From an uncultured Lentisphaeria bacterium (lineage in GTDB: Bacteria; Verrucomicrobiota; Lentisphaeria; JABSQK01; JAJFLO01), in contig OX638337.1 of the NCBI GenBank assembly GCA_951812855.1, forward strand, positions 150,001 to 182,000: a stretch of 32,000 bases of DNA. The letters are read 5' to 3'. Below are positions 12,673 to 26,451 of the stretch, in pieces. The first letter of the stretch is position 1. Each line of letters begins with the position of its first letter. The notes under the pieces were generated by a model. It was not told where the DNA came from, did not search any database, and was given only the letters and a program-made list of their open reading frames with translations. Both the position numbers and the translations under genes were made by a program.

Positions 12673-12797
12673 TGTCTGATTCAACTTCGAACAACCATGA
12701 ATAGCGTATGTGGTGACCTTATTTATTTCAGTTGGTTCCGGCAATAAAGCCGACGCTGTGTCGTCATCGCTGTGCTGATAAATCGTTTAAATCCTGT

Positions 12798-12829
12798 AAA
12801 AAAAAATAGAAACAAATTCATGTTTCTAT
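12798..12829 (-). terminator. orphan intrinsic-terminator-like hairpin (minus-strand sense)
   Basis: A perfect 9-bp stem ATAGAAACA / TGTTTCTAT (12806-12829, 6-nt loop). On the + strand it is preceded by an A9 run, which is a U-run after the hairpin only on the minus strand. No minus-strand gene reads into it. The stem is AT-rich. Confidence 0.25.
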
Positions 12830-12890
12830 TCGGACCCGCCCTGCCCTGACTCCGGTCCAAACGGAGCATTAACTCTTCGCCGGGTAACCA

Positions 12891-13109
12891 GTGAAACATT
12901 TAAAGGCGGGAGTTCTATATCGTCATTTGAGATGTCAAAAGAAACGCTGCCGCCTTTATGGAAGTGGCAAACGAATCATTATCTCCAACCGTGAATCGTA
13001 TCGCACCTCACAGGAAATCATTAATATGTTACGGAATTATTCTAAAAACGTATTGACCATTACCGCTGATAATGCATTGGAGTTTGCATGTCATCAATTG
13101 GTCAATTAA
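12891..13109 (+). pseudogene. IS30-family transposase remnant (internally deleted)
   Basis: The 72-aa ORF joins an IS30-like mid-region ('LYRHLRCQKKRCRLYGSGKR...ISNRES', compare IS30 'HLRR..RHGRR..RKGERG') directly to the '...TITADNALEFACH' block (compare 'TxDxGxEFAxH'). The segment carrying the first DDE aspartate (GxWEGD) is missing. Confidence 0.6.
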
Positions 13110-13151
13110 ATTAGTCTGTATAATTCCCCAAAAGAAGGTCTAAGGATAATA

Positions 13152-13625
13152 GTGGCAAATCTTTATCTCGAATTTGATCAAATTATACGTCGGTTTACGA
13201 ATGCAAACATTCGTTACGCTGTCGTTGGCGGACTTGCAGTTGGATTTTATGGGTATTTGCGGGCAACTGAAGATATTGACTTTATGGTTGATACCTCAGA
13301 TGTCAGTCAGGTCGCGGAAATTCTGGTTAATTTGGGATATAACGACAAAAAAGATCCCTGGCGTTTTAAGGACAACCAACTACAACTGCGACGGTTTATT
13401 AAACATGGAGATGATCCGGATAATATATCAGTAGTGGACGTATTGGAAGCCGCCACATCAGGAAACCTCAAGGTACTTGACAAGGCAGTTGATATTAAAT
13501 ATGCAGATATTTCAATTAAAGTTGTGACCGCATCAGATTTGATTCTTATGAAGAAACCCCAAAATTCAGACAAGGACAAGCTGGATATAGATTACTTGAA
13601 AGACCTGTTAAATGAGAAAAAATAA
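13152..13625 (+). CDS. small nucleotidyltransferase-fold (Pol-beta superfamily) protein
   Basis: 157 aa with a GTG start and an AAGGA Shine-Dalgarno 5 nt upstream. The motif 'VVGGLAVGFYGYLRATEDIDFMVD' is the GG...R.T.DxD minimal NTase signature. The exact family (DUF6036/MNT/AbiEii-like) cannot be resolved by eye. Confidence 0.5.
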   Translation: MANLYLEFDQIIRRFTNANIRYAVVGGLAVGFYGYLRATEDIDFMVDTSDVSQVAEILVNLGYNDKKDPWRFKDNQLQLRRFIKHGDDPDNISVVDVLEAATSGNLKVLDKAVDIKYADISIKVVTASDLILMKKPQNSDKDKLDIDYLKDLLNEKK

Positions 13626-13809
13626 CAGTAAAAATTTCGACGCAGAAAGAGTAATCAAGCGGATAAGTGATTTAAGACATCTTAGTCTTCAACTCGCAAA
13701 CGCAGGACTCAATGCAGAATTATTTAAGATAGATATTAGTAAGTATACGGGTCCTCTTCCTTCAGAGTATGAAATATTGAATCTGGCAAATCAGTCAAAA
13801 AGACTTTAA
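13612..13809 (+). CDS. hypothetical small protein (possible partner of the NTase)
   Basis: 65-aa ORF overlapping the NTase 3' end by 14 nt. No recognisable domain and only a weak RBS. Confidence 0.3.
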   Translation: MRKNNSKNFDAERVIKRISDLRHLSLQLANAGLNAELFKIDISKYTGPLPSEYEILNLANQSKRL

Positions 13810-13888
13810 AGTAAAGACCTTTCCCCGGCGTTCCTTTGTGGATTAGGTATAGATTTTCATTCTGGATAGAAAATTTTCTGAATTATTA

Positions 13889-16800
13889 TTAATTCGCCTC
13901 AGTAACGTTCCAGCCACCCCCAAGGGATTGATAGAGACGGACAAGCAAGCGATTGGCTGATTCGTGGGCAAGGATGATTTGTTTCTGTTTATCATGCATA
14001 TTCAATATTGCCTTAATCACATCGTGGTAATCCGACAGTCCATTCGCATATAGCGTCTCTGCAATTGTCACTGATTTGATGGCAGATGCAGCAGCAGCAT
14101 TTAATTGCGTTATTTGTTTTTGTTCGTTATCAAACGCAATTAAATTACTTTCAACTTCTTCTAATGCATGAAGAACGGTTTTCCTATAGGCAGTCATTTC
14201 CTCCCGCAGACGAAGTTTCTGTGCTCTGACTTCTTTTTTGATATAGAGACTGCTGAGAATCCGCCATTTAAAGGATGGACCGAAGCTGTACGTTTTACTT
14301 TCGTTTCGAGCCAGCTTGTTAAAGTAAGTTGAGTTCAGCCCCAAATTACCGTCTAATGTAAATTTAGGAAAATACTCGGTTCTGGCGATTTTTAAACGAG
14401 ATGCTTCGGCAGCAACACGGTGCTCTGATTTACGTATATCCGGCCTGCGTCTTAAAAGATCAGCAGGTATTCCTTCTGCTATATGTTGTTTTGGAGAGAG
14501 TAAGGAAATTTGATCCATCAGCATTGAATCCAATGCCCCTGAAACTTCGCCTGACAGAAGGCAGATACGATTGAGTGTTTGTTGTTTTTGTGTTTGGACT
14601 TGAATCAACTTAACCTGTTTAAGCAGCTGCTGTTCATTTACATCGTTAATATCCCGTTCATCAGCTGTTCCCGCATTGAATTTAGCCTTTACGAGACGGT
14701 AATTTTCCTGCAGAAGGTTAATGGTTGATTTTATTAATGACTCCTGTTCCTGCAAACTTCGATAGATAAAATATTGCTGTGCCAGATCTGCTGAAATCAT
14801 AACATGTAAATTATATAAATCTTCTGATGTCGCATGAAAATCATGTGTCGCAATATTAATGGATTCTTTAATTCGCCCCCAAAAATCCAATTCCCAGCTC
14901 GCATCCATGAACAAATCCCAGTTACTGATTGATTCAATCGTTTGAAAATTGTTCTTTATATTCTCTGAATACTGCTTTCGCCTGTAGTCACCTTCAATTT
15001 TTATAGATGGCAACCGGGTACTTTCTTCCCGTTCGATGAGCACTCTTGAACGTGCAACACGTTCCAGGCCAATCGCAATATCAAGATTCGTCAGTTTTGC
15101 CTTATTAATCAGATTTGTTAATATCGGGTCATTAAACTGATGCCACCACTGATCAAGATCACCGTCAGCAGGTGGTGAGTACGACGGTATGGACCATCTG
15201 TCAGGCAGTTTAAATTTATAATTATCGTCAATTTTATTATTTGATTTACATGATGAACCAATCACAATGATCCCCATAAGTATGAAAAGGGTTCCGGCAT
15301 TGCGGAAACGTTTTATGATTTGAGAAAATCCCATAAACAAACTCAGAAGTGCAGGGATTAATACCAGTGTAAAAACTGTAGACAACACCATGCCGCCGAC
15401 AATCACAGATCCTAACCCGCGATAGAGTTCAGAGCCGGATCCGGGAATCAGAACAAGCGGCATCATACCTCCTACAGATGTCAGCATGCTCATAAATATC
15501 GGACGAACGCGACTCTGTACCGCCAGTGCTATTGCTTTCCTCTCAGATAAAACAGGGCTTCTGTCATCGTTCTTTTCGTTATTCTTTAACAGATTGTTCG
15601 TTTGTGCAACAATTAATATTGCATTATTAACGACGACTCCGATTAATATAAAAAAGCCCAGAATAGTCAGCATATCCAGATTTTGAGTGGGGACATAGCG
15701 ATTAATTATACTCCAATGATGAAGAATGGCCAGGCCAATAAACCCGCCAAACGTAGCAAACGGGACACTGACCATAATAATCAAAGGCTGAATCCAGCTT
15801 TGAAACAAAATACACAACAATAGATAAACCGCAGCAATTGCCAGAAAAAATGAACTCTCAGCGAAACCGGAAATACTTCCGTCACCAAATAACGTTTTCC
15901 GAATATCCTGCAGTTTACCTGCTGTTCCCTGTATTTCTAAAAAAACTTTTGGAGAAATTACGCCTTTATCTCGAAGATCAGCGACAGTTTCTTCTATAGT
16001 TGCAACCGCCGCCTCAAGCGGAATTTCACCCGGGGGCGTTAATTCGAGAGAAACAGCTCGCTGCCTTTCAACCCGCTTGATTTGATCCGCTGCATCTGAC
16101 CATTGAAAACTCCCCAGACGTCTAAGAGAAACTATTTTTCCGTTTGAATTGACAACCGGTATATCAGGCAGTGTATTTAAGTGATCAAGGTCCTTACTGG
16201 TTTTTGCGATCAGTTTTAAATCAATTAAATCCCCCGAATAATCATAATCTCCTAAAATAATCCCGTCACTGACTCCCTGTACTGCCAGTCCAAAATCCTG
16301 AACTGACATGGCCATCTCTGAGAGATTAAAGTGATCAGGAATGATCTGAAGTTCACGGGAATTGACATTGAAATTTGCGGGGTCCGGTCGAAGTGTTCCT
16401 GGACCAAACTTCTCCATTAACGCCCCAAACAACGGGCTTGTTGACGAAGAGATTAAATCCAAATCGCTTCCAACCAGGTTGATTTTAATAGCCGAACCAG
16501 TTGAACCGCCAATTCGAAACAGTGGAAATTGGAATGCGAACGCATATGTTCCAGGCAGAACAGACGGCATAGTTGCTTTTTGAAACAGTGCTATATTGTC
16601 AATTGCTTTTTGAGAATCTTCACTGATTGCACCATGAAATAAAATACCATTCCGGGCAACAAGAAAATATTTCACTAAAGCAGCTGGCTCAACTGTCTCT
16701 CGAGTCTTACTGAATGGTATCTCTATAGGCTTTCGATCCGGGGTATCTTCCCAATAAGGTTGAATAGTATTTTCAACCCGCTGTCCTAATTCCTGTAATT

Positions 16801-18538
16801 GATCAAGATTATAGCCGGGTGGCGGCATCATTAAACCAAACGTAATATTTCGATTGCCTTTTGGTAAATAGTCCATTGGCGGAATCAACTTAATTGTTCC
16901 CAGAATTGTTATACCAATAAAGCACAACACAACCAGGACTTTTAAGACAAAACTGCCATTAATAAAGTAAATTAATCGATACATAAATGCATTTGTTGCG
17001 GTTCCTTTCTTCCGTATTCCATGCTTATGCAACAACGCTGCTCCGGCAGAAGGAATAACGGTAACAGCAACAAGATAACTGAATCCAACTGACGCAATAA
17101 TGGCGATAGCAATATCTTTAAATAACTGCCCAACCTGATCTGATATCATCAAAATCGGTATAAATACGACAATCGTTGTCAGTGTTGAAGCAAGAACCGC
17201 ACCGGCGACTTCTTTTGTTCCCTCATAAGCGGCCTGTAACCGTCCTCTGCCCATTTCAAGATGACTATAAATATTTTCGAGTACAACAATACAATTGTCG
17301 ACAACCATGCCAACAGCAAACGCCATTCCAGCTAAACTGACAACGTTAATGGAACGTCCCAGACTAACCATAATCACAATTGCACCTAAAACTGAAACCG
17401 GAATGGATAATGCTATAATCCCAACGGATCGGAATGAGCGTAAGAACAAAAGCAATACAACTATTGCCAGCGAACCGCCGATAAATATATTGTTTTGAAC
17501 AAGTTTAAGAGCTTGATTTATATAATTTGTGGAGCGATAAGAAAGTTCCATTTTAAGCCTGCTGGTTAATCCTAATTCCCGGGCATGCCCATCGAGTAAG
17601 CCTCCAGGTAAATGCAATTTGTCAATTTTAGCCTGAAGATTTTTCATTATTTCCAAAACATTACTTCCGGGTTCTCGTTGAAAGTTGAATGCAAGAACAG
17701 GGTTGCCATTTGCCCGGACAAATGAAGTTTGCTCCTTAAATGTTTCCTTGACCGCTGCCACATCAGCGACATAAACAATTCCGTTTGTATCCTGACGTAA
17801 AACCACATTCAATATTTGACTGACCGATGAGAACCGCCCAACCGTACGTATTCGAACATCGGTTTTTCCCTGTTTCAACGCTCCCCCGGAAATATTTAAA
17901 TTGGAACTTGTAAGAACATTCACAAAATCAGCAATCCGAATGCGATGCTGGGCAAGTTTCTCCGGGTCAAATTGTACCTGAACCTCGCGTTCTCTACCTC
18001 CGAGCACGTTTACTTCTGAAATACCCGGTACCCGTTCTAATTGGGGTTTGATTCGATCTTCAGCAAAATCAAGGAGAGTTTCAATTTCTAAAGACTTGTC
18101 CTCAGAGATCAGGATAAACCAGGCAATATAATCCTGACTCTCCGGGTCACTTGCTTCTATAACCGGTTCATCAACATTTTCGGGATAAGCAGGAACTTCA
18201 CGAAGTTTATCGCTAACCTCACGAAGTGCAGATTCTTTTTTAACTCCCGTAATAAATTCAAGTCGAATTTCCCCTCTTCCACGGCTGCTGATACTTGACA
18301 TACTCTTCAGGTTAGATAATCCCTGAAGTTTTTCTTCCTGGGGATCAATTATTTCGGATTCTATTTCATGAGGGCCGGCATTCTCCCAGTTGGTTGAAAC
18401 TGCAATGATGGTATCGTCAATTTCCGGCATCATTTGTACTGGAACAACCTTTAATGCAACAATACCCGCTAATAAACAAAATATAACTCCAACCGAAATT
18501 GTAATCGGTTGACGTGTTGATAAACGTATAATATCCAT
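13889..18538 (-). CDS. fused efflux RND permease (aa 1-~1068) plus NodT-family outer-membrane factor lipoprotein (aa ~1069-1549)
   Basis: A single uninterrupted 1549-aa ORF. The N-terminal ~1068 aa have AcrB/HAE-like 12-TM architecture. The junction reads '...LIPALLSLF-MGFSQIIKRFRNAGTLFILMGIIVIGSS-C-KSNN': a charged n-region, an h-region, and a lipobox-like GSS|C with the Cys codon at 15248-15250. The C-terminal 481 aa have OMF hallmarks ('WWHQFNDPILTNLI', C-terminal 'LYQSLGGGWN'). Confidence 0.8.
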   Translation of the reverse strand: MDIIRLSTRQPITISVGVIFCLLAGIVALKVVPVQMMPEIDDTIIAVSTNWENAGPHEIESEIIDPQEEKLQGLSNLKSMSSISSRGRGEIRLEFITGVKKESALREVSDKLREVPAYPENVDEPVIEASDPESQDYIAWFILISEDKSLEIETLLDFAEDRIKPQLERVPGISEVNVLGGREREVQVQFDPEKLAQHRIRIADFVNVLTSSNLNISGGALKQGKTDVRIRTVGRFSSVSQILNVVLRQDTNGIVYVADVAAVKETFKEQTSFVRANGNPVLAFNFQREPGSNVLEIMKNLQAKIDKLHLPGGLLDGHARELGLTSRLKMELSYRSTNYINQALKLVQNNIFIGGSLAIVVLLLFLRSFRSVGIIALSIPVSVLGAIVIMVSLGRSINVVSLAGMAFAVGMVVDNCIVVLENIYSHLEMGRGRLQAAYEGTKEVAGAVLASTLTTIVVFIPILMISDQVGQLFKDIAIAIIASVGFSYLVAVTVIPSAGAALLHKHGIRKKGTATNAFMYRLIYFINGSFVLKVLVVLCFIGITILGTIKLIPPMDYLPKGNRNITFGLMMPPPGYNLDQLQELGQRVENTIQPYWEDTPDRKPIEIPFSKTRETVEPAALVKYFLVARNGILFHGAISEDSQKAIDNIALFQKATMPSVLPGTYAFAFQFPLFRIGGSTGSAIKINLVGSDLDLISSSTSPLFGALMEKFGPGTLRPDPANFNVNSRELQIIPDHFNLSEMAMSVQDFGLAVQGVSDGIILGDYDYSGDLIDLKLIAKTSKDLDHLNTLPDIPVVNSNGKIVSLRRLGSFQWSDAADQIKRVERQRAVSLELTPPGEIPLEAAVATIEETVADLRDKGVISPKVFLEIQGTAGKLQDIRKTLFGDGSISGFAESSFFLAIAAVYLLLCILFQSWIQPLIIMVSVPFATFGGFIGLAILHHWSIINRYVPTQNLDMLTILGFFILIGVVVNNAILIVAQTNNLLKNNEKNDDRSPVLSERKAIALAVQSRVRPIFMSMLTSVGGMMPLVLIPGSGSELYRGLGSVIVGGMVLSTVFTLVLIPALLSLFMGFSQIIKRFRNAGTLFILMGIIVIGSSCKSNNKIDDNYKFKLPDRWSIPSYSPPADGDLDQWWHQFNDPILTNLINKAKLTNLDIAIGLERVARSRVLIEREESTRLPSIKIEGDYRRKQYSENIKNNFQTIESISNWDLFMDASWELDFWGRIKESINIATHDFHATSEDLYNLHVMISADLAQQYFIYRSLQEQESLIKSTINLLQENYRLVKAKFNAGTADERDINDVNEQQLLKQVKLIQVQTQKQQTLNRICLLSGEVSGALDSMLMDQISLLSPKQHIAEGIPADLLRRRPDIRKSEHRVAAEASRLKIARTEYFPKFTLDGNLGLNSTYFNKLARNESKTYSFGPSFKWRILSSLYIKKEVRAQKLRLREEMTAYRKTVLHALEEVESNLIAFDNEQKQITQLNAAAASAIKSVTIAETLYANGLSDYHDVIKAILNMHDKQKQIILAHESANRLLVRLYQSLGGGWNVTEAN

Positions 18539-18540
18539 GC

Positions 18541-19668
18541 TTATTCAGCTCCGGGAAGAAGGGAGACGGGCATCATTGGAAATAAACGTTCATTGCCTTC
18601 AGTAATAACACGGTCTCCGGCTTTTAAATCTGGACACTGTACTGCTGCTATTGCCCCAGTCCTGAAAAGAATCTGAACAGGTAGGGGAACAGCGTTTATC
18701 TCCTGCGGTGTAGACTGTGCTTTAAAAACAAAATAACCCGCTGCATTACGCATAATTGCATCATTGGGAACGAGCAAACGATCTGCGTAAATTCCATTCG
18801 GTACCGTTGCTGTAATTGACATACCGGGAATGAGACCATGCTTGTTATCGTCGTTTAATTCTGCAATGAGGGTATAATTCCGGGACTGTTCATTAACCCG
18901 GGGAATAATTCGGATACCTTTTACAGACAGTTGAAAATTATGTGCTTGTATGGAAATATGTTCCGGTTTTAAATATTCTGTTTGAATCGTCTCAGAAATA
19001 TTAAGCCAGGCTTCTAATCTTTCACTGCTCTGTAATCGAACAAGATTTCCTCCGGAACTGACCCGACTTCCCCTTCCCAGGTATTTTTCGGTAATAATCC
19101 CTGTAAAAGGTGCCTTTATTTCTGTATCGGTCAATGATGTTTTTATGCGGCCGAGTTGTTCTTTTAAAGTAACCAGATTTGCCTGTAAAATTGAAATCTC
19201 TCCGGCTGCTTTGACGGTTAATAATTTTGCCTGACGTAATTGTTGCTGACTGACAGACCCATTAAAACTCTTCTCTGCATCCAGTAATGAATGGTAGTCT
19301 TGTTCATGAATTTCAAGCTCGTTATAAAATCGGGCGATTCCAGATTCCGTTTCCTTTATCTGAGCATGTGTCACATTTATATCATGGACAATCCGGCGAC
19401 TGTCTAATTTTGCAATTACATCTCCTTTTTTTATATGCATACCTTCAGTTACAGAAAACTCATCAATACGTCCATTTTCCAGCGAAGCAATATCCGATTC
19501 TAAACCAGCACGCAGAGAACCGGTAACAATCTTCAAATCTGCAATGGTTTCATATTTCACAACGGCTGTACGCACCGGGCTTGGACCCTGCCCCCAGACT
19601 ACACTGGCTGACAACGCTATAACCAAATAAAAATAATTCATGTTATTCATAACAGATTTCATCACCAA
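18541..19668 (-). CDS. efflux RND periplasmic adaptor (membrane fusion protein, HlyD/AcrA family)
   Basis: 375 aa with a signal/anchor N-terminus, lipoyl-like and coiled-coil hairpin segments, and a beta-barrel C-terminus. Its stop lies 2 nt before the RND ATG. Confidence 0.85.
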   Translation of the reverse strand: MVMKSVMNNMNYFYLVIALSASVVWGQGPSPVRTAVVKYETIADLKIVTGSLRAGLESDIASLENGRIDEFSVTEGMHIKKGDVIAKLDSRRIVHDINVTHAQIKETESGIARFYNELEIHEQDYHSLLDAEKSFNGSVSQQQLRQAKLLTVKAAGEISILQANLVTLKEQLGRIKTSLTDTEIKAPFTGIITEKYLGRGSRVSSGGNLVRLQSSERLEAWLNISETIQTEYLKPEHISIQAHNFQLSVKGIRIIPRVNEQSRNYTLIAELNDDNKHGLIPGMSITATVPNGIYADRLLVPNDAIMRNAAGYFVFKAQSTPQEINAVPLPVQILFRTGAIAAVQCPDLKAGDRVITEGNERLFPMMPVSLLPGAE

Positions 19669-20016
19669 TAAAATACTGACAGTTTAATCTGATCTCCCCG
19701 AACAGTTAACTCTCTAACCGGCTGGTATTACAGAGGAAACTAAAGTAGAGCGGGAGAGCTTTAAATCAAATCATATAAACCCATTATTTGATTGGAAGAA
19801 GCAAAGAAGATAGAGTCATTCTCAGCTTCCTCAACAATGCATAGCGTATTCATATTTGTTATGAAAAAATCCGTTTTCCAACTAATTTGTCAAATGATTC
19901 GCTTATAATTGAAATACAAAAAAACTATTGAACCTTTATGATCATGTATATAGTTTGAAAACTTATTTTTATACTCGATTTCTTTAGTGAATAAAACTGC
20001 GGATTTTAAGGAGAAT

Positions 20017-21066
20017 ATGCTGGATTCAACATCAGCTCCCTTCGACACGTGTATCGATGATATCTTATGTCGTAATCCAGATGACAGAAAAAAAGGTACT
20101 GTCATTGGATTTTCGAGAGATAATAGACCTGTTGAAGCATATTGTATAGGAGAAGGATCCCATCAGATTAGTTTAATAGGCGGCTGTCATGCCGATGAAC
20201 CCGTCGGGCCGAGATTACTGAAACATTTGGTAACCTATCTCCAATCCCTTTCATCTGACGATCCGTGGCTAACCCATTTTACCTGGTGGATTATTCCACA
20301 TACTAATCCTGACGGTGAAATCAAAAATAAGTTATGGTACACTGAAACCGATGAGCAATACGACTGCCTAAATTATTTCAAACACGTTATCAGAGAACCT
20401 CCCGGAGATGATATTGAATTTGCGTTCCCGAATAACTCACGGGATAATGATACCCGCCCTGAGAATATTGCGATTTATAATTGGTGGATGTCCGCACCTC
20501 ATCCATTCCATCTTCATGCGTCGCTTCATGGAATGGCGATCGGTGCCGGCCCCTGGTTCCTCGTCGAAAAAGAGTGGTGGCCGAGATGTCGACGGTTGCA
20601 AAAAATCTGTACGTCAAGAGTTGCTGAACTGGGCTATAAGCTGCACGATGTACAGCGTCATGGTGAAAAGGGTTTTTTTCGATTGGATAAAGGATTTTGT
20701 TCCCATCCGGATTCCCGGGCGATGCGTCAATATTTTATCAATCAGAATGATTTAGAGATGGCAGAAAAGTTTCGTCCCGGCTCAATGGAAACAATTCGTT
20801 CATTTGGCGGTGATCCGTTGACCCTGGTCAGTGAGATGCCGCTATTTATTATCCCGTCTGTATCCTCAGACCACACATTTATTCGAGAATGGAAAAAGAA
20901 AATTCATGATTGGTGTAAACACAAATCCGGGAATTCTCCAGACTGGGCAAAAGACATCTCAATAACCCCAATGCCCATTAAAGATCAAATGAAACTTCAA
21001 TGGACCTTTATCACCGGCGGAATTAATGTGATACTTGATCAAATCAGTGAATCAGGTCAAGAATGA
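20017..21066 (+). CDS. M14-family zinc carboxypeptidase-like protein (no signal peptide)
   Basis: Contains the 'GGCHADEPVG' (HxxE zinc motif) and 'IIPHTNPDGE' signatures of M14 peptidases. ATG 20017 is preferred because AAGGAG sits just upstream at 20008-20013. The track's GTG at 19987 has no RBS. Confidence 0.7.
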   Translation: MLDSTSAPFDTCIDDILCRNPDDRKKGTVIGFSRDNRPVEAYCIGEGSHQISLIGGCHADEPVGPRLLKHLVTYLQSLSSDDPWLTHFTWWIIPHTNPDGEIKNKLWYTETDEQYDCLNYFKHVIREPPGDDIEFAFPNNSRDNDTRPENIAIYNWWMSAPHPFHLHASLHGMAIGAGPWFLVEKEWWPRCRRLQKICTSRVAELGYKLHDVQRHGEKGFFRLDKGFCSHPDSRAMRQYFINQNDLEMAEKFRPGSMETIRSFGGDPLTLVSEMPLFIIPSVSSDHTFIREWKKKIHDWCKHKSGNSPDWAKDISITPMPIKDQMKLQWTFITGGINVILDQISESGQE

Positions 21067-22606: not shown

Positions 22607-23080
22607 ATGAAGAAGTTATATTTATTACCCCTTATAACAATTTTATTAAGTGGCTGTGAGCCAGCACCGCTTAAAATCGATCATAAAACACTTAAAAGAG
22701 ATGTTTCAATTTATTCCGGTCGTTTAGATGTCGACGTAAAGGTTAAATTTATGGGTAGTCAGGCTCTCTACAATCTTCATTTAAAGCCGGTTATAACATC
22801 CAATTTGAAGGATGGAAAAACAGAAGTTGATAAATCAAACCTGACATGGTTTGAAGAACAGATAAAAGATTATGATTCATATAAGGCTGTCTTTATACAA
22901 CTTAAAGATGTTGATGGATTTAAGCTCGCAGAAGAAGAAGTCAGAGTCTCTGAAGGTGGTGTAAGAATTCTTGACTCTGACTCTGAAGCTGAGTCTTACA
23001 TCTATGAAGGCACGTTCAGTGTTGATCCAGAAATTGTTCAGTTTGCCTCATACATAGAAATTGTATGGAATCTAAAGTAA
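22607..23080 (+). CDS. hypothetical lipoprotein
   Basis: 157 aa with a strong Shine-Dalgarno (AAGGAGAG). The signal 'MKKLYLLPLITILLSG|C' has a canonical lipobox. The mature part has no domain I recognise. Confidence 0.7.
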   Translation: MKKLYLLPLITILLSGCEPAPLKIDHKTLKRDVSIYSGRLDVDVKVKFMGSQALYNLHLKPVITSNLKDGKTEVDKSNLTWFEEQIKDYDSYKAVFIQLKDVDGFKLAEEEVRVSEGGVRILDSDSEAESYIYEGTFSVDPEIVQFASYIEIVWNLK

Positions 23081-23148
23081 GTGCCTAACGCCCCTACTGT
23101 GAAAATCATATACAAATGAAAATAAATCTAATAAAAAAAGGAGACGTA

Positions 23149-23760
23149 ATGAAAATAAATCTAATATCTATATTATTTCTTTTAATATCATCACAGCTAT
23201 ATGCAGCTGATCCATTGAGTTTCCGAGTAGGGTTTGTTGTTGAGGCTGAAGACAGCATTAAAGGGAGAATAGAGAGCTATATATCCAGAGAGTTACGATC
23301 GCTTGGTGATGTAATTCAATCAAAAGAAAATTATGATTATTTCTTATCGATTATAGCTCTAAAGTTACGAACAGAAAGTGGATACGATACAGGAGTAGCT
23401 CTATCAATCACGATAGTTTCGAAGTTTGAGAATAAGCATATGTCCTTCATACTCGAAGATCTCAAAGATGAGGATAAGTCAATAGCCATGGAGTTTACAT
23501 CAAATCTATATTATTACCCATATCACTGGCTTCAAAAAGGGTCGAATGAAGATCTGCAATCAATGTGCAAAGATATCGTCGCCGACTTTGATATTAAGTT
23601 TTTACAGAGTTATAGAGATATCTATCAAATAATACTGGATAATAAGAATAAGATTCGAGGTCTGGATGAAAATGAAATAAAAAAGTTGAAAAATACGATA
23701 CTGAAATATGGGAATAAGAGTGCAACAAAAGTATTTTTAAACACGCTTAAATCCAAATAA
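23149..23760 (+). CDS. hypothetical secreted/periplasmic protein
   Basis: 203 aa counted from ATG 23149, which has AAGGAG at 23138-23143. Signal peptide 'MKINLISILFLLISSQLYA|ADP'. No recognisable domain. The track's start at 23116 is an 18-nt duplicate of the true start region. Confidence 0.65.
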   Translation: MKINLISILFLLISSQLYAADPLSFRVGFVVEAEDSIKGRIESYISRELRSLGDVIQSKENYDYFLSIIALKLRTESGYDTGVALSITIVSKFENKHMSFILEDLKDEDKSIAMEFTSNLYYYPYHWLQKGSNEDLQSMCKDIVADFDIKFLQSYRDIYQIILDNKNKIRGLDENEIKKLKNTILKYGNKSATKVFLNTLKSK

Positions 23761-23778: not shown

Positions 23779-24507
23779 ATGCAAAAAACACAAAGGGAAA
23801 ACAAAAAAGAGAAAGGATATGTGTATATATTGACAAATCCAAGTTTCCGTGAAGATTGGATTAAAATTGGTAAATCATTGAGAGAAGTTGATGTTAGATC
23901 AAGAGAATTAGATAATACTGCAGTTCCATTACCATTTGAAATTTTTGCCACTCTAAGAACAGAAAAATATGAGAAGGTTGAAAGAAATTTGCATAAAATT
24001 TTTACAGATTTAGCTGATATAAGGATTCGCAAGAATAGAGAGTTTTTTAATATAACACCAGAAGAAGCACTTGAGTATTTAAAAAATATAGCAGATCTTA
24101 TTGATGATGTTGATGGTGTAAAATTAAATGCTCCTGATGATGAAATTGAAACAAATGATGGGAAAAAACCAACCTACAAAGGTAAATACAACGTTAATAC
24201 TGATGAAATTTTTTATTTTGCAAAAGATACGACTGACGCTAAAATGAAGATTATTGATGGAAACAGATATATTGTTTTGGCAGGTTCCAAAATTGACTCA
24301 AAAATTTATAGTAATGGAGATTTTGTAAAAAAACTAAGAGAAGAGAACGCTAGTAGCCTTGATGGTGAAAAAACAACTTCTGATATAGAATTTACTTCAC
24401 CTTCAGCAGCTGGTAGTTTTGTTAAGGGTGGTTCAACAAACGGAAAATATTATTGGCGAACAAAGGATAATAAAAAACTTGATGACTTTATTGAATATAT
24501 ACAATAG
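23779..24507 (+). CDS. GIY-YIG superfamily (T5orf172/MUG113-like) domain protein with C-terminal DUF4357-like domain
   Basis: 242 aa with Shine-Dalgarno AAAGGAGAG. N-terminus 'GYVYILTNPSFREDWIKIGKS...R..EL......PF.....L........E..LH..F...R....REFF' fits T5orf172. C-terminus 'IVLAGSKI...DIEFTSPSAAGSFVKGGSTNGKYYWRTKD' fits the DUF4357 pattern (F.SPS.AA...G...NG...W). Confidence 0.7.
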   Translation: MQKTQRENKKEKGYVYILTNPSFREDWIKIGKSLREVDVRSRELDNTAVPLPFEIFATLRTEKYEKVERNLHKIFTDLADIRIRKNREFFNITPEEALEYLKNIADLIDDVDGVKLNAPDDEIETNDGKKPTYKGKYNVNTDEIFYFAKDTTDAKMKIIDGNRYIVLAGSKIDSKIYSNGDFVKKLREENASSLDGEKTTSDIEFTSPSAAGSFVKGGSTNGKYYWRTKDNKKLDDFIEYIQ

Positions 24508-24632
24508 TATTATTATATCCGGTCAAAGTTATTGTAGCAGTTTGCTTTTGCATATTTAAAGTGATTAAAAATTTAGAATTTTGATTGTGGACAGCTGTGC
24601 TTTTTCGGTTTTTTTTCGGCTATAATATATAT

Positions 24633-24661
24633 ATAAAACTAAGGATACCCCTTTGAAAATA
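24633..24661 (+). repeat. island repeat copy B (29-nt core only)
   Basis: ATAAAACTAAGGATACCCCTTTGAAAATA. It is preceded by TATAAT plus an (AT)n run at 24621-24634. Confidence 0.9.
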
Positions 24662-24856
24662 TTATGCCTTCCTTCGCCAGCATCCCAACCCCCAAAGTAT
24701 ATTTCAGTAAGAATGTTTCAGGCGGGTCTGTTAGATTATTCAAGAATGATTTTCACTTTCCAAAATATACCTTATACTAAAGAACACCCAGTTGGGGTTT
24801 TTTGCCGATGCTGACAGAAAAACCAGGCAGTTTCTGCAATCATCCCATAAGTTTTC

Positions 24857-24867
24857 AAAACTAAGGA
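24857..24867 (+). repeat. left-half copy of the island repeat (AAAACTAAGGA) forming the upp' leader/RBS
   Basis: An 11-nt exact match to the left half of the core, 6 nt upstream of the upp' ATG at 24874. Confidence 0.5.
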
Positions 24868-24873
24868 ACGGCT

Positions 24874-25065
24874 ATGTCATTTTCTCCTTTTATCCAAGTT
24901 GATCATCCTTTGGTGCAAAACAAATTGACGACCATGCGACATCAAGAAACCCCCACCGGAAATTTTCCGGGCACGGTGGAACGAAATTTCACTTCTGATG
25001 GGATATAAAGTGACCCGCGACATCGCACTTTCACATGAAAGGATCGAAACGCCTTTAACGGGGCT
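24874..25065 (+). pseudogene. upp: uracil phosphoribosyltransferase 5' fragment, frameshifted and truncated
   Basis: From ATG 24874 the frame reads 'MSFSPFIQVDHPLVQNKLTTMRHQETPTGNF'. After a +1 shift near ttttCCGGG the next frame reads 'RARWNEISLLMGYKVTRDIALSHERIETPL'. Together these track the B. subtilis Upp N-terminus ('[54 protein letters not shown]'). The homology ends at about 25065, and the rest of upp is absent from the window. Confidence 0.7.
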
Positions 25066-25786
25066 GAGCACCAACTGCTTTCACTGTGGCGATACATTGT
25101 CCTTAATGGAGCAGATACCGGCTCAGTCAATTGATCTGGTTGTTACCTCGCCGCCTTACAACCTCAGGCAGTCATCCGGTAACGGAATGAAAAACGGTAA
25201 CGGTGGAAAATGGCCAAAGGCGAAGCTGATCGAGGGCTACGAAGCACATAACGACTGTATGCCGCATGATGAGTATGTTGCCTGGCAGCGAAAATGCCTA
25301 ACGGCAATGATGCGTCTGATTAAGCCGACTGGTGCAATCTTTTACAACCACAAATGGCGCGTACAGAAAGGCTTGCTACAGGACAGAGCAGACATTTTAG
25401 AAGGTTTTCCCGTTCGTCAAATCATCGTCTGGCAACGTAAAGGTGGTATCAACTTCAACCCCGGTTATTTTCTGCCAACGTATGAGGTTATCTATCTCAT
25501 TGCGAAGCCCGATTTTAAGCTTGCGCCAAAGGCTAATGCGGTTGGGGATGTCTGGGAAATCCCACAAGAATCCAACAATCCTCATCCGGCACCGTTCCCA
25601 ACAGAACTTGCGCAGCGGTGTATAGGCTCGACAGATGCCGAAGTGGTGCTGGACCCCTTTATGGGGTCAGGAACCACCGCTATTGCGGCGGAGTCCGAAG
25701 GGCGTGCGTGGATTGGCATCGAGAAAAGCAAAGACTATTGCCGGTTGGCCAAAGAGAGAATGGCCGTCTACAGGGAGCAACAATGA
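24998..25786 (+). CDS. beta-class DNA methyltransferase (SPPY type, probable N4-cytosine) of an MvaI/BcnI-type R-M system; the first ~24 codons are upp-derived
   Basis: Motif IV 'VVTSPPYN' precedes motif I 'VVLDPFMGSGTTAIAA', which is the beta-class order. The conserved N-terminal 'FHCGDTLSLMEQIP' has only one in-frame ATG upstream of it, at 24998 inside the upp' fragment. The stop overlaps the REase ATG (ATGA). Confidence 0.85.
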   Translation: MGYKVTRDIALSHERIETPLTGLSTNCFHCGDTLSLMEQIPAQSIDLVVTSPPYNLRQSSGNGMKNGNGGKWPKAKLIEGYEAHNDCMPHDEYVAWQRKCLTAMMRLIKPTGAIFYNHKWRVQKGLLQDRADILEGFPVRQIIVWQRKGGINFNPGYFLPTYEVIYLIAKPDFKLAPKANAVGDVWEIPQESNNPHPAPFPTELAQRCIGSTDAEVVLDPFMGSGTTAIAAESEGRAWIGIEKSKDYCRLAKERMAVYREQQ

Positions 25787-26451
25787 TTACCACAAAACAA
25801 TTGTTTGAGGAGATAAGAGGCCTTTGCGACAGTGGTTGGTATGATCTGCCAAAGACCGGCGCGGGGGCACCAGGAGACTTGCTGGAGAACATTCTTGGAT
25901 TGAAAACGACAAACCACGATGGGCCTGATGCTGGTTTGTGGGAACTCAAGTTTAGTCGAGGTAATTCCCTTTTAACGTTGTGCCATAAAACACCACGACC
26001 TCGCGGCATCATCAAGTACGTTATCAATAGGCATGGGTGGATAGGTAAGAATGGGCGCAAGGGGTTTCGCCATACCATTGAAGGTGAGTCAGGCAGAGGG
26101 TTCAATATAGTCTACGATTCTGGCTCCATCTGGGTACGTCATCAGGATGATATGTCCCCTGTTCCTCATTGGACAGAAGAAGACTTGACGAATGCTATCG
26201 TCTCAAAACTGCGCCGATTGGTTTATGTGACAGGAACAGTGAAATCAGGACAAGTGAGGTATGAGAAAGCCGTTGCTTTTGAGAACATCAAAACGTCTCG
26301 TCTCATGAAGGCGATTGCAGATGGCTTAATACTCGTGGACTTTGATGCCTATATCAAGGATTCAGGGGCAGTGCGCGACCACGGCACTAAGTTTAGAGTG
26401 CGGCCAGAAAACCTCGGGAAGCTCTATGTTGAATCCACTAAAATAGTTTAG
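25783..26451 (+). CDS. type IIP restriction endonuclease, MvaI/BcnI family (PD-(D/E)XK)
   Basis: 222 aa counted from ATG 25783, which has AGGGAG 5 nt upstream. 'GPDAGLWELKF' gives PD-x5-ExK, and 'DGLILVDFDAYIKDSGAVRDHGTKFRVRPENLGKLY' parallels the BcnI C-terminus as I recall it ('DGVLVMDL...GPHDRGPHLRIPISKLDKLY'). The track's alternative start at 25618 lies inside the MTase gene and is rejected. Confidence 0.72.
   Translation: MITTKQLFEEIRGLCDSGWYDLPKTGAGAPGDLLENILGLKTTNHDGPDAGLWELKFSRGNSLLTLCHKTPRPRGIIKYVINRHGWIGKNGRKGFRHTIEGESGRGFNIVYDSGSIWVRHQDDMSPVPHWTEEDLTNAIVSKLRRLVYVTGTVKSGQVRYEKAVAFENIKTSRLMKAIADGLILVDFDAYIKDSGAVRDHGTKFRVRPENLGKLYVESTKIV

Follow-up and report, generated by a model that had tools for sequence, protein, structure and literature searches.

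How could one uninterrupted polypeptide supply both the inner-membrane permease of an efflux pump and the outer-membrane partner of that permease? This question is raised by a locus in a 32,000-nucleotide stretch of DNA, hereafter the window, from an uncultured Lentisphaeria bacterium (GenBank assembly GCA_951812855.1, contig OX638337.1, forward-strand positions 150,001 to 182,000). An initial annotation had claimed that a membrane fusion protein (MFP, the periplasmic adaptor), a resistance-nodulation-division (RND) permease and an outer-membrane factor (OMF) follow one another here in the standard MFP-RND-OMF order, with no stop codon between RND and OMF. Both points hold. The open reading frame (ORF) listing and its translation gave a single uninterrupted ORF (13889..18538, minus strand) with an ATG start, no internal stop and a product of 1549 amino acids (aa) that matches ACR_tran as well as OEP and TIGR01845, and the stop codon (TAA) of the MFP gene lies 2 nucleotides (nt) upstream of the ATG of the fusion. 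The translation reads '...LIPALLSLFMGFSQIIKRFRNAGTLFILMGIIVIGSSCKSNN...' at the junction, which is laid out as ...LIPALLSLF-MGFSQII-KRFR-NAGTLFILMGIIVIGSS-C-KSNN..., and ends with '...LYQSLGGGWNVTEAN*'. We think that the locus is probably a two-gene tripartite RND efflux operon, composed of an adaptor and an RND::OMF fusion, and that the fused precursor is separated by Lgt and LspA at an internal lipoprotein signal.

Each half of the fusion scores as a full-length domain. The RND half matches Pfam ACR_tran over its whole length (aa 3-1068, profile positions 1-1020 of 1021, E=1e-178), and a hydropathy scan found 12 transmembrane (TM) helices in a 1+5/1+5 pattern with two large periplasmic loops (TM1 at aa 14-32, TM2-6 within 351-494, TM7 at 534-552 and TM8-12 within 898-1069). 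By homology with AcrB, the C terminus of the RND half should lie in the cytoplasm. No NCBIfam equivalog or subfamily cut-off was reached among those for AcrB, MexB, MdtB/C, CusA and others (the best was NF033617 RND_permease_2, 524.7 vs 1250 bits), and, as judged from its sequence matches, this half is an RND but of an uncharacterised subfamily distinct from AcrB and MexB. Its TM4 reads 'AGMAFAVGMVVDNCIVVLEN' (aa 403-412, nt about 17303-17332, minus strand), in which 'VVDN' has Asp-Asn where AcrB has the Asp-Asp proton-relay pair; 'VVDN' is found in TM4 throughout this RND subfamily, in fused and unfused members alike. The product of the MFP gene exceeds the cut-off of TIGR01730 RND_mfp (155.7 vs 94.9 bits), also matches HlyD_3 and HlyD_D23, and begins with a hydrophobic signal or anchor that has no lipobox.

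The OMF half exceeds the cut-off of NCBIfam TIGR01845 outer_NodT (aa 1128-1542, 266.6 bits with a cut-off of 210) and has two matches to Pfam OEP (PF02321), reaching aa 1540. In a phmmer search against PDB it aligned end to end with OprN (E=4.6e-43) and OprM (about 1e-36), and OprJ, SilC, CusC, MtrE, CmeC and VceC were also matched. From an AlphaFold2 model of the junction and OMF half (aa 991-1549) we used only the low-confidence linker and, after it, the OMF fold (four beta-strands and long helical hairpins per protomer), most of which has a pLDDT above 90. Foldseek with this model recovered OprN at an E of about 1e-26 and a TM-score of 0.84-0.85, and over OprN, OprJ, OprM, CmeC and CusC the values ranged from E=1e-23 to 1e-27 and from TM-score 0.78 to 0.90.

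We considered that the fusion might be an artefact or a decaying gene: either an error in sequencing or assembly or a recent mutation that inactivates the locus could have deleted the stop and start that once divided two genes, given that a single-nucleotide indel at an ATGA overlap suffices to create such a fusion. This explanation is effectively refuted. Not only do both halves score as intact domains, but a search of 5.8 billion proteins found 32 orthologous clusters (1522-1591 aa, 45-79% identity, 95-100% coverage), such that the same fusion occurs in dozens of independent assemblies and sequencing projects. Relatives are thus not uniformly split into two genes, and the fusion is not a lesion unique to this genome. 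Named carriers are a Lentisphaeraceae metagenome-assembled genome (MAG), Candidatus Scalindua japonica, a Scalindua sp. and a Planctomycetota MAG; the fusion is also present in a species-representative Brocadiaceae genome (L001, 1595 aa from stop to stop). Counting all fused classes, more than 60 clusters of proteins, drawn from independent assemblies, have the uninterrupted fused architecture, which is far more than chance would give, with several orthologous fusion proteins present on 2-5 independent contigs, and all fused proteins scanned, including P0074 and P0032, contain ACR_tran followed by two OEP matches. The representative of the cluster to which the window protein belongs (P0001) is likewise intact at 1549 aa and differs by a single residue, F1085S, which lies within the hydrophobic junction segment described below (nt 15284-15286); this variant suggests two near-identical genomes or strains. 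Six orthologous loci, taken from NCBI MAGs, ENA, TARA and Logan raw-run assemblies, all have the order (TetR)-MFP-fusion, and a separate OMF gene is absent from all six of them; the MFP gene was directly upstream of the fusion in every orthologous locus that we looked at.

To place the fused proteins among other RNDs, we used a tree of the RND halves (neighbour-joining, 118 sequences, no bootstrap). The class of about 1550 aa to which the window protein belongs (F1) forms one clade. A second class of about 1690 aa (F2, 31 sequences) forms a different clade, nested among unfused RNDs, and AcrB-like fused proteins fall outside both. In an example F2 locus (L089 5001-10103; P0074, 1700 aa) the order is again MFP-fusion. 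The F2 proteins have about 560-600 aa after the lipobox Cys, some 110-150 aa more than the OMF of the window, with the extra region between the Cys and the OEP repeats, and their OEP match is weak (E=2e-12). An exhaustive HMMER search with aa 800-1549 added fused representatives at 28-30% identity (P0254, P0255, P0256, P0263, P0266, P0274 and P0354), which by their sequences are from clearly different RND subfamilies. As read from these relationships, the fusion is old, conserved and recurrent, with F1, F2 and the AcrB-like or other lineages fused independently, at least three times. Within F1, the RND and OMF halves co-diverge (Pearson 0.83 over 435 non-independent pairs), and the OMF half evolves about twice as fast, with a mean identity of 31% compared to 61% for the RND half and a minimum of 17%.

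A separate observation concerns one protein of the fused class, P0333 (1689 aa), whose long low-complexity middle, rich in Arg, Pro, Gly and His, looks like high-GC DNA read in the wrong frame; a frameshift or a mis-called gene is thus more probable here than a true variant.

The junction itself has the parts of a lipoprotein signal peptide, as the initial annotation had proposed, and Cys1097 and the ATG codons of M1069 (15334) and M1088 (15277) lie where it had placed them. After TM12, the hydropathy scan found a 13th, weaker hydrophobic segment (aa 1081-1099; Kyte-Doolittle mean 1.61 over 19 aa and 2.68 over a 13-aa core) and nothing hydrophobic C-terminal of it, and the self-consistent topology that had been suggested, 12 TM helices plus one short hydrophobic segment, is borne out. 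In the window protein, KRFR is followed by a 17-aa uncharged run, within the range of about 7-22 aa expected of such h-regions, and the lipobox IGSS|C1097. When all sequences were anchored on the conserved SELYRGLG motif ahead of TM12, a basic stretch, an uncharged run and a PROSITE-type lipobox Cys stood at the same place in all F1 members except one: [GAS]-C follows the uncharged run in 33 of 34 F1, all 31 F2 and all 7 other fused sequences. The complete layout of basic n-region, hydrophobic h-region and lipobox is kept in 71 of 72 fused sequences (median net charge of the n-region, +3), and the signature [LVIFST][ASTG][GAS]C of signal peptidase (SPase) II stands right after the h-region in all three independent fusion groups.

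Conservation at the junction is confined to the lipobox Cys. In both alignments that we inspected (A1 and A2), the position of Cys1097 is the sole invariant residue between TM12 and the 'WW..F.D' motif of the OMF, a region that is otherwise hypervariable. Since the Cys is invariant in a hypervariable region, the alignments indicate that the signal peptide is under selection. In unfused RNDs a short basic tail follows TM12, and in the fused proteins the same tail runs directly into the h-region; this agrees with the earlier proposal that KRFR has two functions, one as tail of the RND and one as n-region of the signal. The lipobox Cys of a lipoprotein is expected within about the first 40 residues of the precursor, whereas here it is residue 1097 and comes after 12 TM helices. 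We infer that the stretch around Cys1097 would work like a lipoprotein signal, with the internal position making the case unusual. The organism appears to have a lipoprotein pathway, as suggested by another ORF of the window (22607-23080, plus strand, 157 aa), which encodes an ordinary lipoprotein precursor that begins MKKLYLLPLITILLSGC|EPAPLK and has an AGGAG Shine-Dalgarno (SD) sequence. Neither this ORF nor its neighbour (23116-23760, plus strand, 214 aa) has a Pfam match.

If the OMF part were cut at Cys1097, its sequence would be that of a free lipoprotein. In OMFs of the NodT family, the lipobox Cys is expected about 30-40 residues ahead of helix H1; here the WW motif comes 33 residues after Cys1097, and the aligned residue is at about 33 in mature OprN and at 39 in mature OprM. 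Since these spacings match, the predicted OMF product aligns colinearly with OMFs that are free lipoproteins and has no additional tether or linker, and we predict that it is lipidated and located in the outer membrane. The segment between the lipobox and the WW motif (aa 1094-1125) is coil in the AlphaFold2 model, with pLDDT below 50, and is thus predicted to be disordered.

We considered the possibility that the fusion works uncut as one polypeptide, with the h-region serving as a permanent 13th TM helix and the OMF either tethered to the inner membrane or acting only as a periplasmic duct. The topology is self-consistent in this form as well, the sequence does not forbid an uncleaved inner-membrane state, and bacteria of the Planctomycetes-Verrucomicrobia-Chlamydiae type have unusual envelopes. 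Four observations nevertheless make this explanation highly improbable. First, the uncharged run has a median length of 15 aa (12-19 aa in F1), which is the length of a signal peptide and not of an anchor. Thus, of the 13th TM helix that had been proposed initially, the hydrophobic segment after TM12 is present, but it is better called the h-region of a signal peptide than a stable anchor. (In the AlphaFold2 model TM12 and the h-region are drawn as one continuous helix at pLDDT 50-70, but this is a monomer model without a membrane and no guide to topology.) Second, an invariant Cys after Gly, Ala or Ser has no rationale in a plain TM anchor. Third, the uncut chain would be too short. The N-terminal segment of OprM links the equatorial domain, at mid-barrel, with the outer membrane, where a lipid anchors it, and the barrel in the periplasm measures about 100 Å (PMC8277102, section 6.2). 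The 33 residues between Cys1097 and the WW motif, the same as in free OprN and OprM, reach at most about 115 Å when fully extended, compared to the more than 150 Å that we estimate for the way past the headpiece of the RND, the tube formed by the adaptor and half the length of the barrel; given this shortfall, the uncut fusion would be unable to build a canonical pump. Fourth, in the single F1 member that has no lipobox Cys (P0032, 1570 aa, from a JGI metagenome), the lipobox is not plainly lost but is swapped for a cleavage site of the AXA type: the h-region is followed by 'QNSNAMA|SE', which resembles a site for SPase I. In this one sequence, cleavability seems to have been kept despite the loss of the lipobox, and the OMF may thus have changed from the lipoprotein type to one that, like TolC, is no lipoprotein, with the fusion retained.

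The apparent SPase I site of P0032 also bears on whether a different protease separates the two halves, that is, SPase I, a rhomboid, a site-2 protease, or a periplasmic enzyme that attacks the segment between Cys and WW, with the Cys kept for another purpose such as a disulfide. Disorder and accessibility are predicted for the junction, and the internal signal of the FbcH precursor is reportedly cut by SPase I. We regard this explanation as very unlikely, however, because the full SPase II signature is kept in three independent fusion groups and the junction signature is identical to the N-terminal signals of unfused OMF relatives, because the TIGR01845 NodT family is defined as consisting of lipoproteins, and because the two alignments contain no second conserved Cys that could pair with Cys1097.

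The initial annotation had named two routes to a free OMF, processing by Lgt and LspA at the internal lipobox or internal initiation at ATG 15334 or 15277, and had seen no good SD sequence before either ATG. According to the second route, the OMF would be made separately from a start between TM12 and the h-region (ATG 15334), and the fusion would be a by-product or a minor species. In the window and its closest relatives, an in-frame ATG (M1069) does lie 28 codons ahead of the Cys, and a protein begun there (MGFSQIIKRFR...) would be a typical lipoprotein precursor; in most orthologues the junction region has at least one in-frame ATG, GTG or TTG, and about half of the genes in the window have no obvious SD sequence, indicating that SD-independent starts occur in this organism. 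On the other side, M1069 is not conserved across F1, and in one orthologue (L085/P0012) the stretch from TM12 to the h-region is devoid of in-frame ATG, GTG and TTG codons. There is no SD sequence ahead of ATG 15334 or at any other candidate in-frame start in eight fused loci, whereas AGGAG or GGAG precedes about half of the window genes, the fusion itself among them. Moreover, the length from the SELYRGLG anchor to the Cys varies (57-62 aa in F1, 66-95 aa in F2), and yet the frame is intact in more than 70 diverged sequences, with junction indels always in frame; independent translation of the OMF would not select for this. Thus, of the two routes, processing by Lgt and LspA is favoured and internal initiation is unlikely. 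Promoter-like and terminator-like sites between 13400 and 20100 occurred in the numbers expected from shuffled sequence.

Unfused relatives point to how such a fusion could arise. In Verrucomicrobiota and Planctomycetota, related RND and OMF genes are adjacent and separate, with the stop of one overlapping the start of the other as ATGA (L017, L032, L042, L045) or GTGA (L058), and the unfused OMFs open with their own signal (M-K/R, h-region and lipobox). Since the RND stop and the OMF start overlap in these relatives, a 1-nt indel is enough for a fusion, and we think that the fusion probably arose by such an indel at an ATGA overlap between neighbouring genes. It would be tolerated because, with the topology of the RND, the signal peptide of the OMF comes to lie the right way round. 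One member of the F1 clade is itself unfused: in P0034 (L088 5001-8216) only 44 aa remain C-terminal of the anchor motif, and the next gene is an AraC gene on the opposite strand. We rejected a secondary fission in this case; there is no OMF gene at the locus, and the OMF half was thus lost, not split off. The P0034 pump may have to borrow an OMF encoded elsewhere, or may be decaying.

We also dropped the idea that the fusion is common in Verrucomicrobiota. A tblastn scan of genome contigs with a junction profile joined pieces from different frames, and when the frames were checked afterwards, 12 of the 13 apparent junction-spanning loci among the matches listed proved to be an unfused RND with an adjacent OMF; these served as the unfused state for comparison. 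A protein search with the same profile returned almost only fragments shorter than 500 aa and added no new taxon names. Neither search amounts to a census.

Since the fusion appears to be old, conserved and recurrent, the chain would most likely be cut in two at the internal signal, and we propose the following course of events. The 12 RND helices would insert co-translationally, with the KRFR tail staying in the cytoplasm as in AcrB-type RNDs. Residues 1081-1096 would then enter the membrane with the N terminus in and the C terminus out, like a signal peptide, and the OMF part of about 450 aa would be translocated to the periplasm. Lgt would add diacylglycerol to Cys1097, LspA would cut between S1096 and C1097 and the new N terminus would be acylated, after which the lipoprotein OMF would be carried to the outer membrane and trimerise there. 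The RND would be left with 28 additional residues at its C terminus, the spent signal peptide among them, and RND, adaptor and OMF would assemble as in MexEF-OprN. Several points weigh against this proposal. The processing steps, the cleavage included, are inferred from sequence, and we know of no characterised case in which Lgt and LspA act on a signal peptide that follows 12 TM helices. Moreover, internal initiation at a near-cognate or SD-independent start may occur, most orthologues do carry an in-frame ATG, GTG or TTG close to the junction, and the tree of the RND halves has no bootstrap support.

As to what the fusion provides, it would guarantee equimolar synthesis of RND and OMF without re-initiation, and a 1:1 stoichiometry is a plausible benefit, as the initial annotation had thought; it may also be merely a tolerated neutral event, or a consequence of tight coupling. 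A more elaborate version of the proposal, which we hold only tentatively and consider a lesser possibility, is that after LspA has cut at the internal lipobox the spent signal is kept on the RND as a functional 13th helix, either as an AcrZ-like modulator or as a device for assembly in cis.

The coordinates of the operon and of the parts of the fusion are collected in the table.

Table. Features of the adaptor and RND::OMF fusion locus, in window coordinates.
Feature	Coordinates	Strand	Basis or remark
MFP (periplasmic adaptor) gene	18541..19668	-	375 aa if the start is TTG at 19668
RND permease portion, aa 1-1068	15335..18538	-	PF00873 ACR_tran, 12 TM
Putative internal lipoprotein-type signal peptide, aa 1069-1096 (MGFSQII-KRFR-NAGTLFILMGIIVIGSS)	15251..15334	-	PROSITE PS51257-type lipobox pattern
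n-region KRFR, aa 1076-1079	15302-15313	-	also basic cytoplasmic RND tail
Cys1097 codon	15248..15250	-	predicted diacylglyceryl site; +1 of mature OMF; predicted LspA cut S1096/C1097
Predicted mature OMF portion, aa 1097-1549 (453 aa), NodT/OprN type	13892..15250	-	TIGR01845
Fusion stop codon	13889-13891	-	translation

The surroundings of the fusion are those of an ordinary chromosome, with genes for PrmC, UvrD, DapF, LysA, LeuCD, a peptidase M14 and a GT2 protein. Named homologues of the LeuC protein, at about 70% identity, are scattered and point to no single phylum. The gene for the peptidase M14, a zinc carboxypeptidase, adjoins the MFP gene divergently (19987-21066, plus strand), and in one orthologous locus (L083) a peptidase M14 gene (263-1291) is also found upstream of the MFP gene, so that this neighbourhood may be a conserved linkage. 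The 1.2 kb on the 3' side of the fusion (12673-13888) are mostly non-coding; the sole ORF there (13152-13625, plus strand, 157 aa, GTG start) has a product that covers only profile positions 56-127 of 249 in NTP_transf_5, and it may be a gene remnant. Farther away, a T5orf172/DUF4357 protein is encoded at 23779-24507 (plus strand) and an N6_N4 DNA methylase at 24998-25786 (plus strand), the latter overlapping, as listed, an ORF for a restriction endonuclease of the MvaI/BcnI family (25618-26451, plus strand); a small defence or mobile island at 23779-26451 is possible.

Compared with known systems, the parts of this pump are familiar, being those of a MexEF-OprN-like pump with a NodT lipoprotein OMF, and the difference is that both partners are in one polypeptide with an internal SPase II-type signal. 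Like MexEF-OprN and MexAB-OprM of Pseudomonas aeruginosa, the locus encodes an adaptor, a 12-TM RND permease and a NodT-family lipoprotein OMF in the same order; the OMF half is closest to OprN, and the mature N termini align from the lipidated Cys. In the Pseudomonas pumps, however, two genes encode RND and OMF as individual polypeptides, and the OMF carries its signal at the N terminus, whereas here there is one chain with the signal after TM12. The unfused operons of Verrucomicrobiota and Planctomycetota (the five loci with ATGA or GTGA overlaps) have RNDs of the same subfamily, OMFs with a lipoprotein signal and the same order of genes, but consist of two ORFs in different frames. The FbcH cytochrome b-c1 precursor of Bradyrhizobium japonicum is said to join a polytopic inner-membrane protein to an exported protein that follows it, and to be divided at an internal signal into two functional subunits of one complex. 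Its processing is reportedly by SPase I, with both products remaining at the inner membrane; of the two precursors, only the RND::OMF fusion would have an SPase II-type signal and a product bound for the outer membrane. SecDF of Thermus thermophilus, a fusion within another RND-type system, illustrates that components of a machine can be separate genes in some bacteria and one polypeptide in others (PMC8277102), but SecDF fusions are uncut and confined to the inner membrane, while the fusion described here joins proteins that would be destined for different membranes. Neither a natural RND-OMF fusion nor processing at an internal lipobox turned up in a literature search, which was incomplete and included the 2021 review of tripartite pumps (PMC8277102).

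If our proposal is correct, Lgt and LspA would naturally handle a signal peptide buried after 12 TM helices, freeing an outer-membrane lipoprotein from an inner-membrane transporter. Such a result would surprise specialists in efflux pumps and in lipoprotein biogenesis, though it addresses no long-standing open question. The fusion would also be a natural experiment on subunit stoichiometry and co-assembly in tripartite pumps, and on an RND with an extra C-terminal membrane segment. There is a practical consequence for annotation as well: the database names of these proteins are generic ('efflux RND transporter permease subunit'), apart from one JGI entry (P0065) named 'AcrB/outer membrane protein TolC', and since the generic RND name hides the OMF, counts of TolC/OMF genes, used as markers of an outer membrane or of efflux capacity, would miss it in Planctomycetota, Lentisphaerota and related MAGs. 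Repeated fusion of genes that overlap as ATGA would mean that translational coupling can turn into gene fusion where membrane topology allows it. Finally, if the spent signal did persist as a functional 13th helix, the device may couple each RND trimer to the OMF trimer made together with it, and the fusion would be a natural polyprotein with two products for different membranes, a mode of biogenesis that has no characterised precedent and would have originated independently at least three times.

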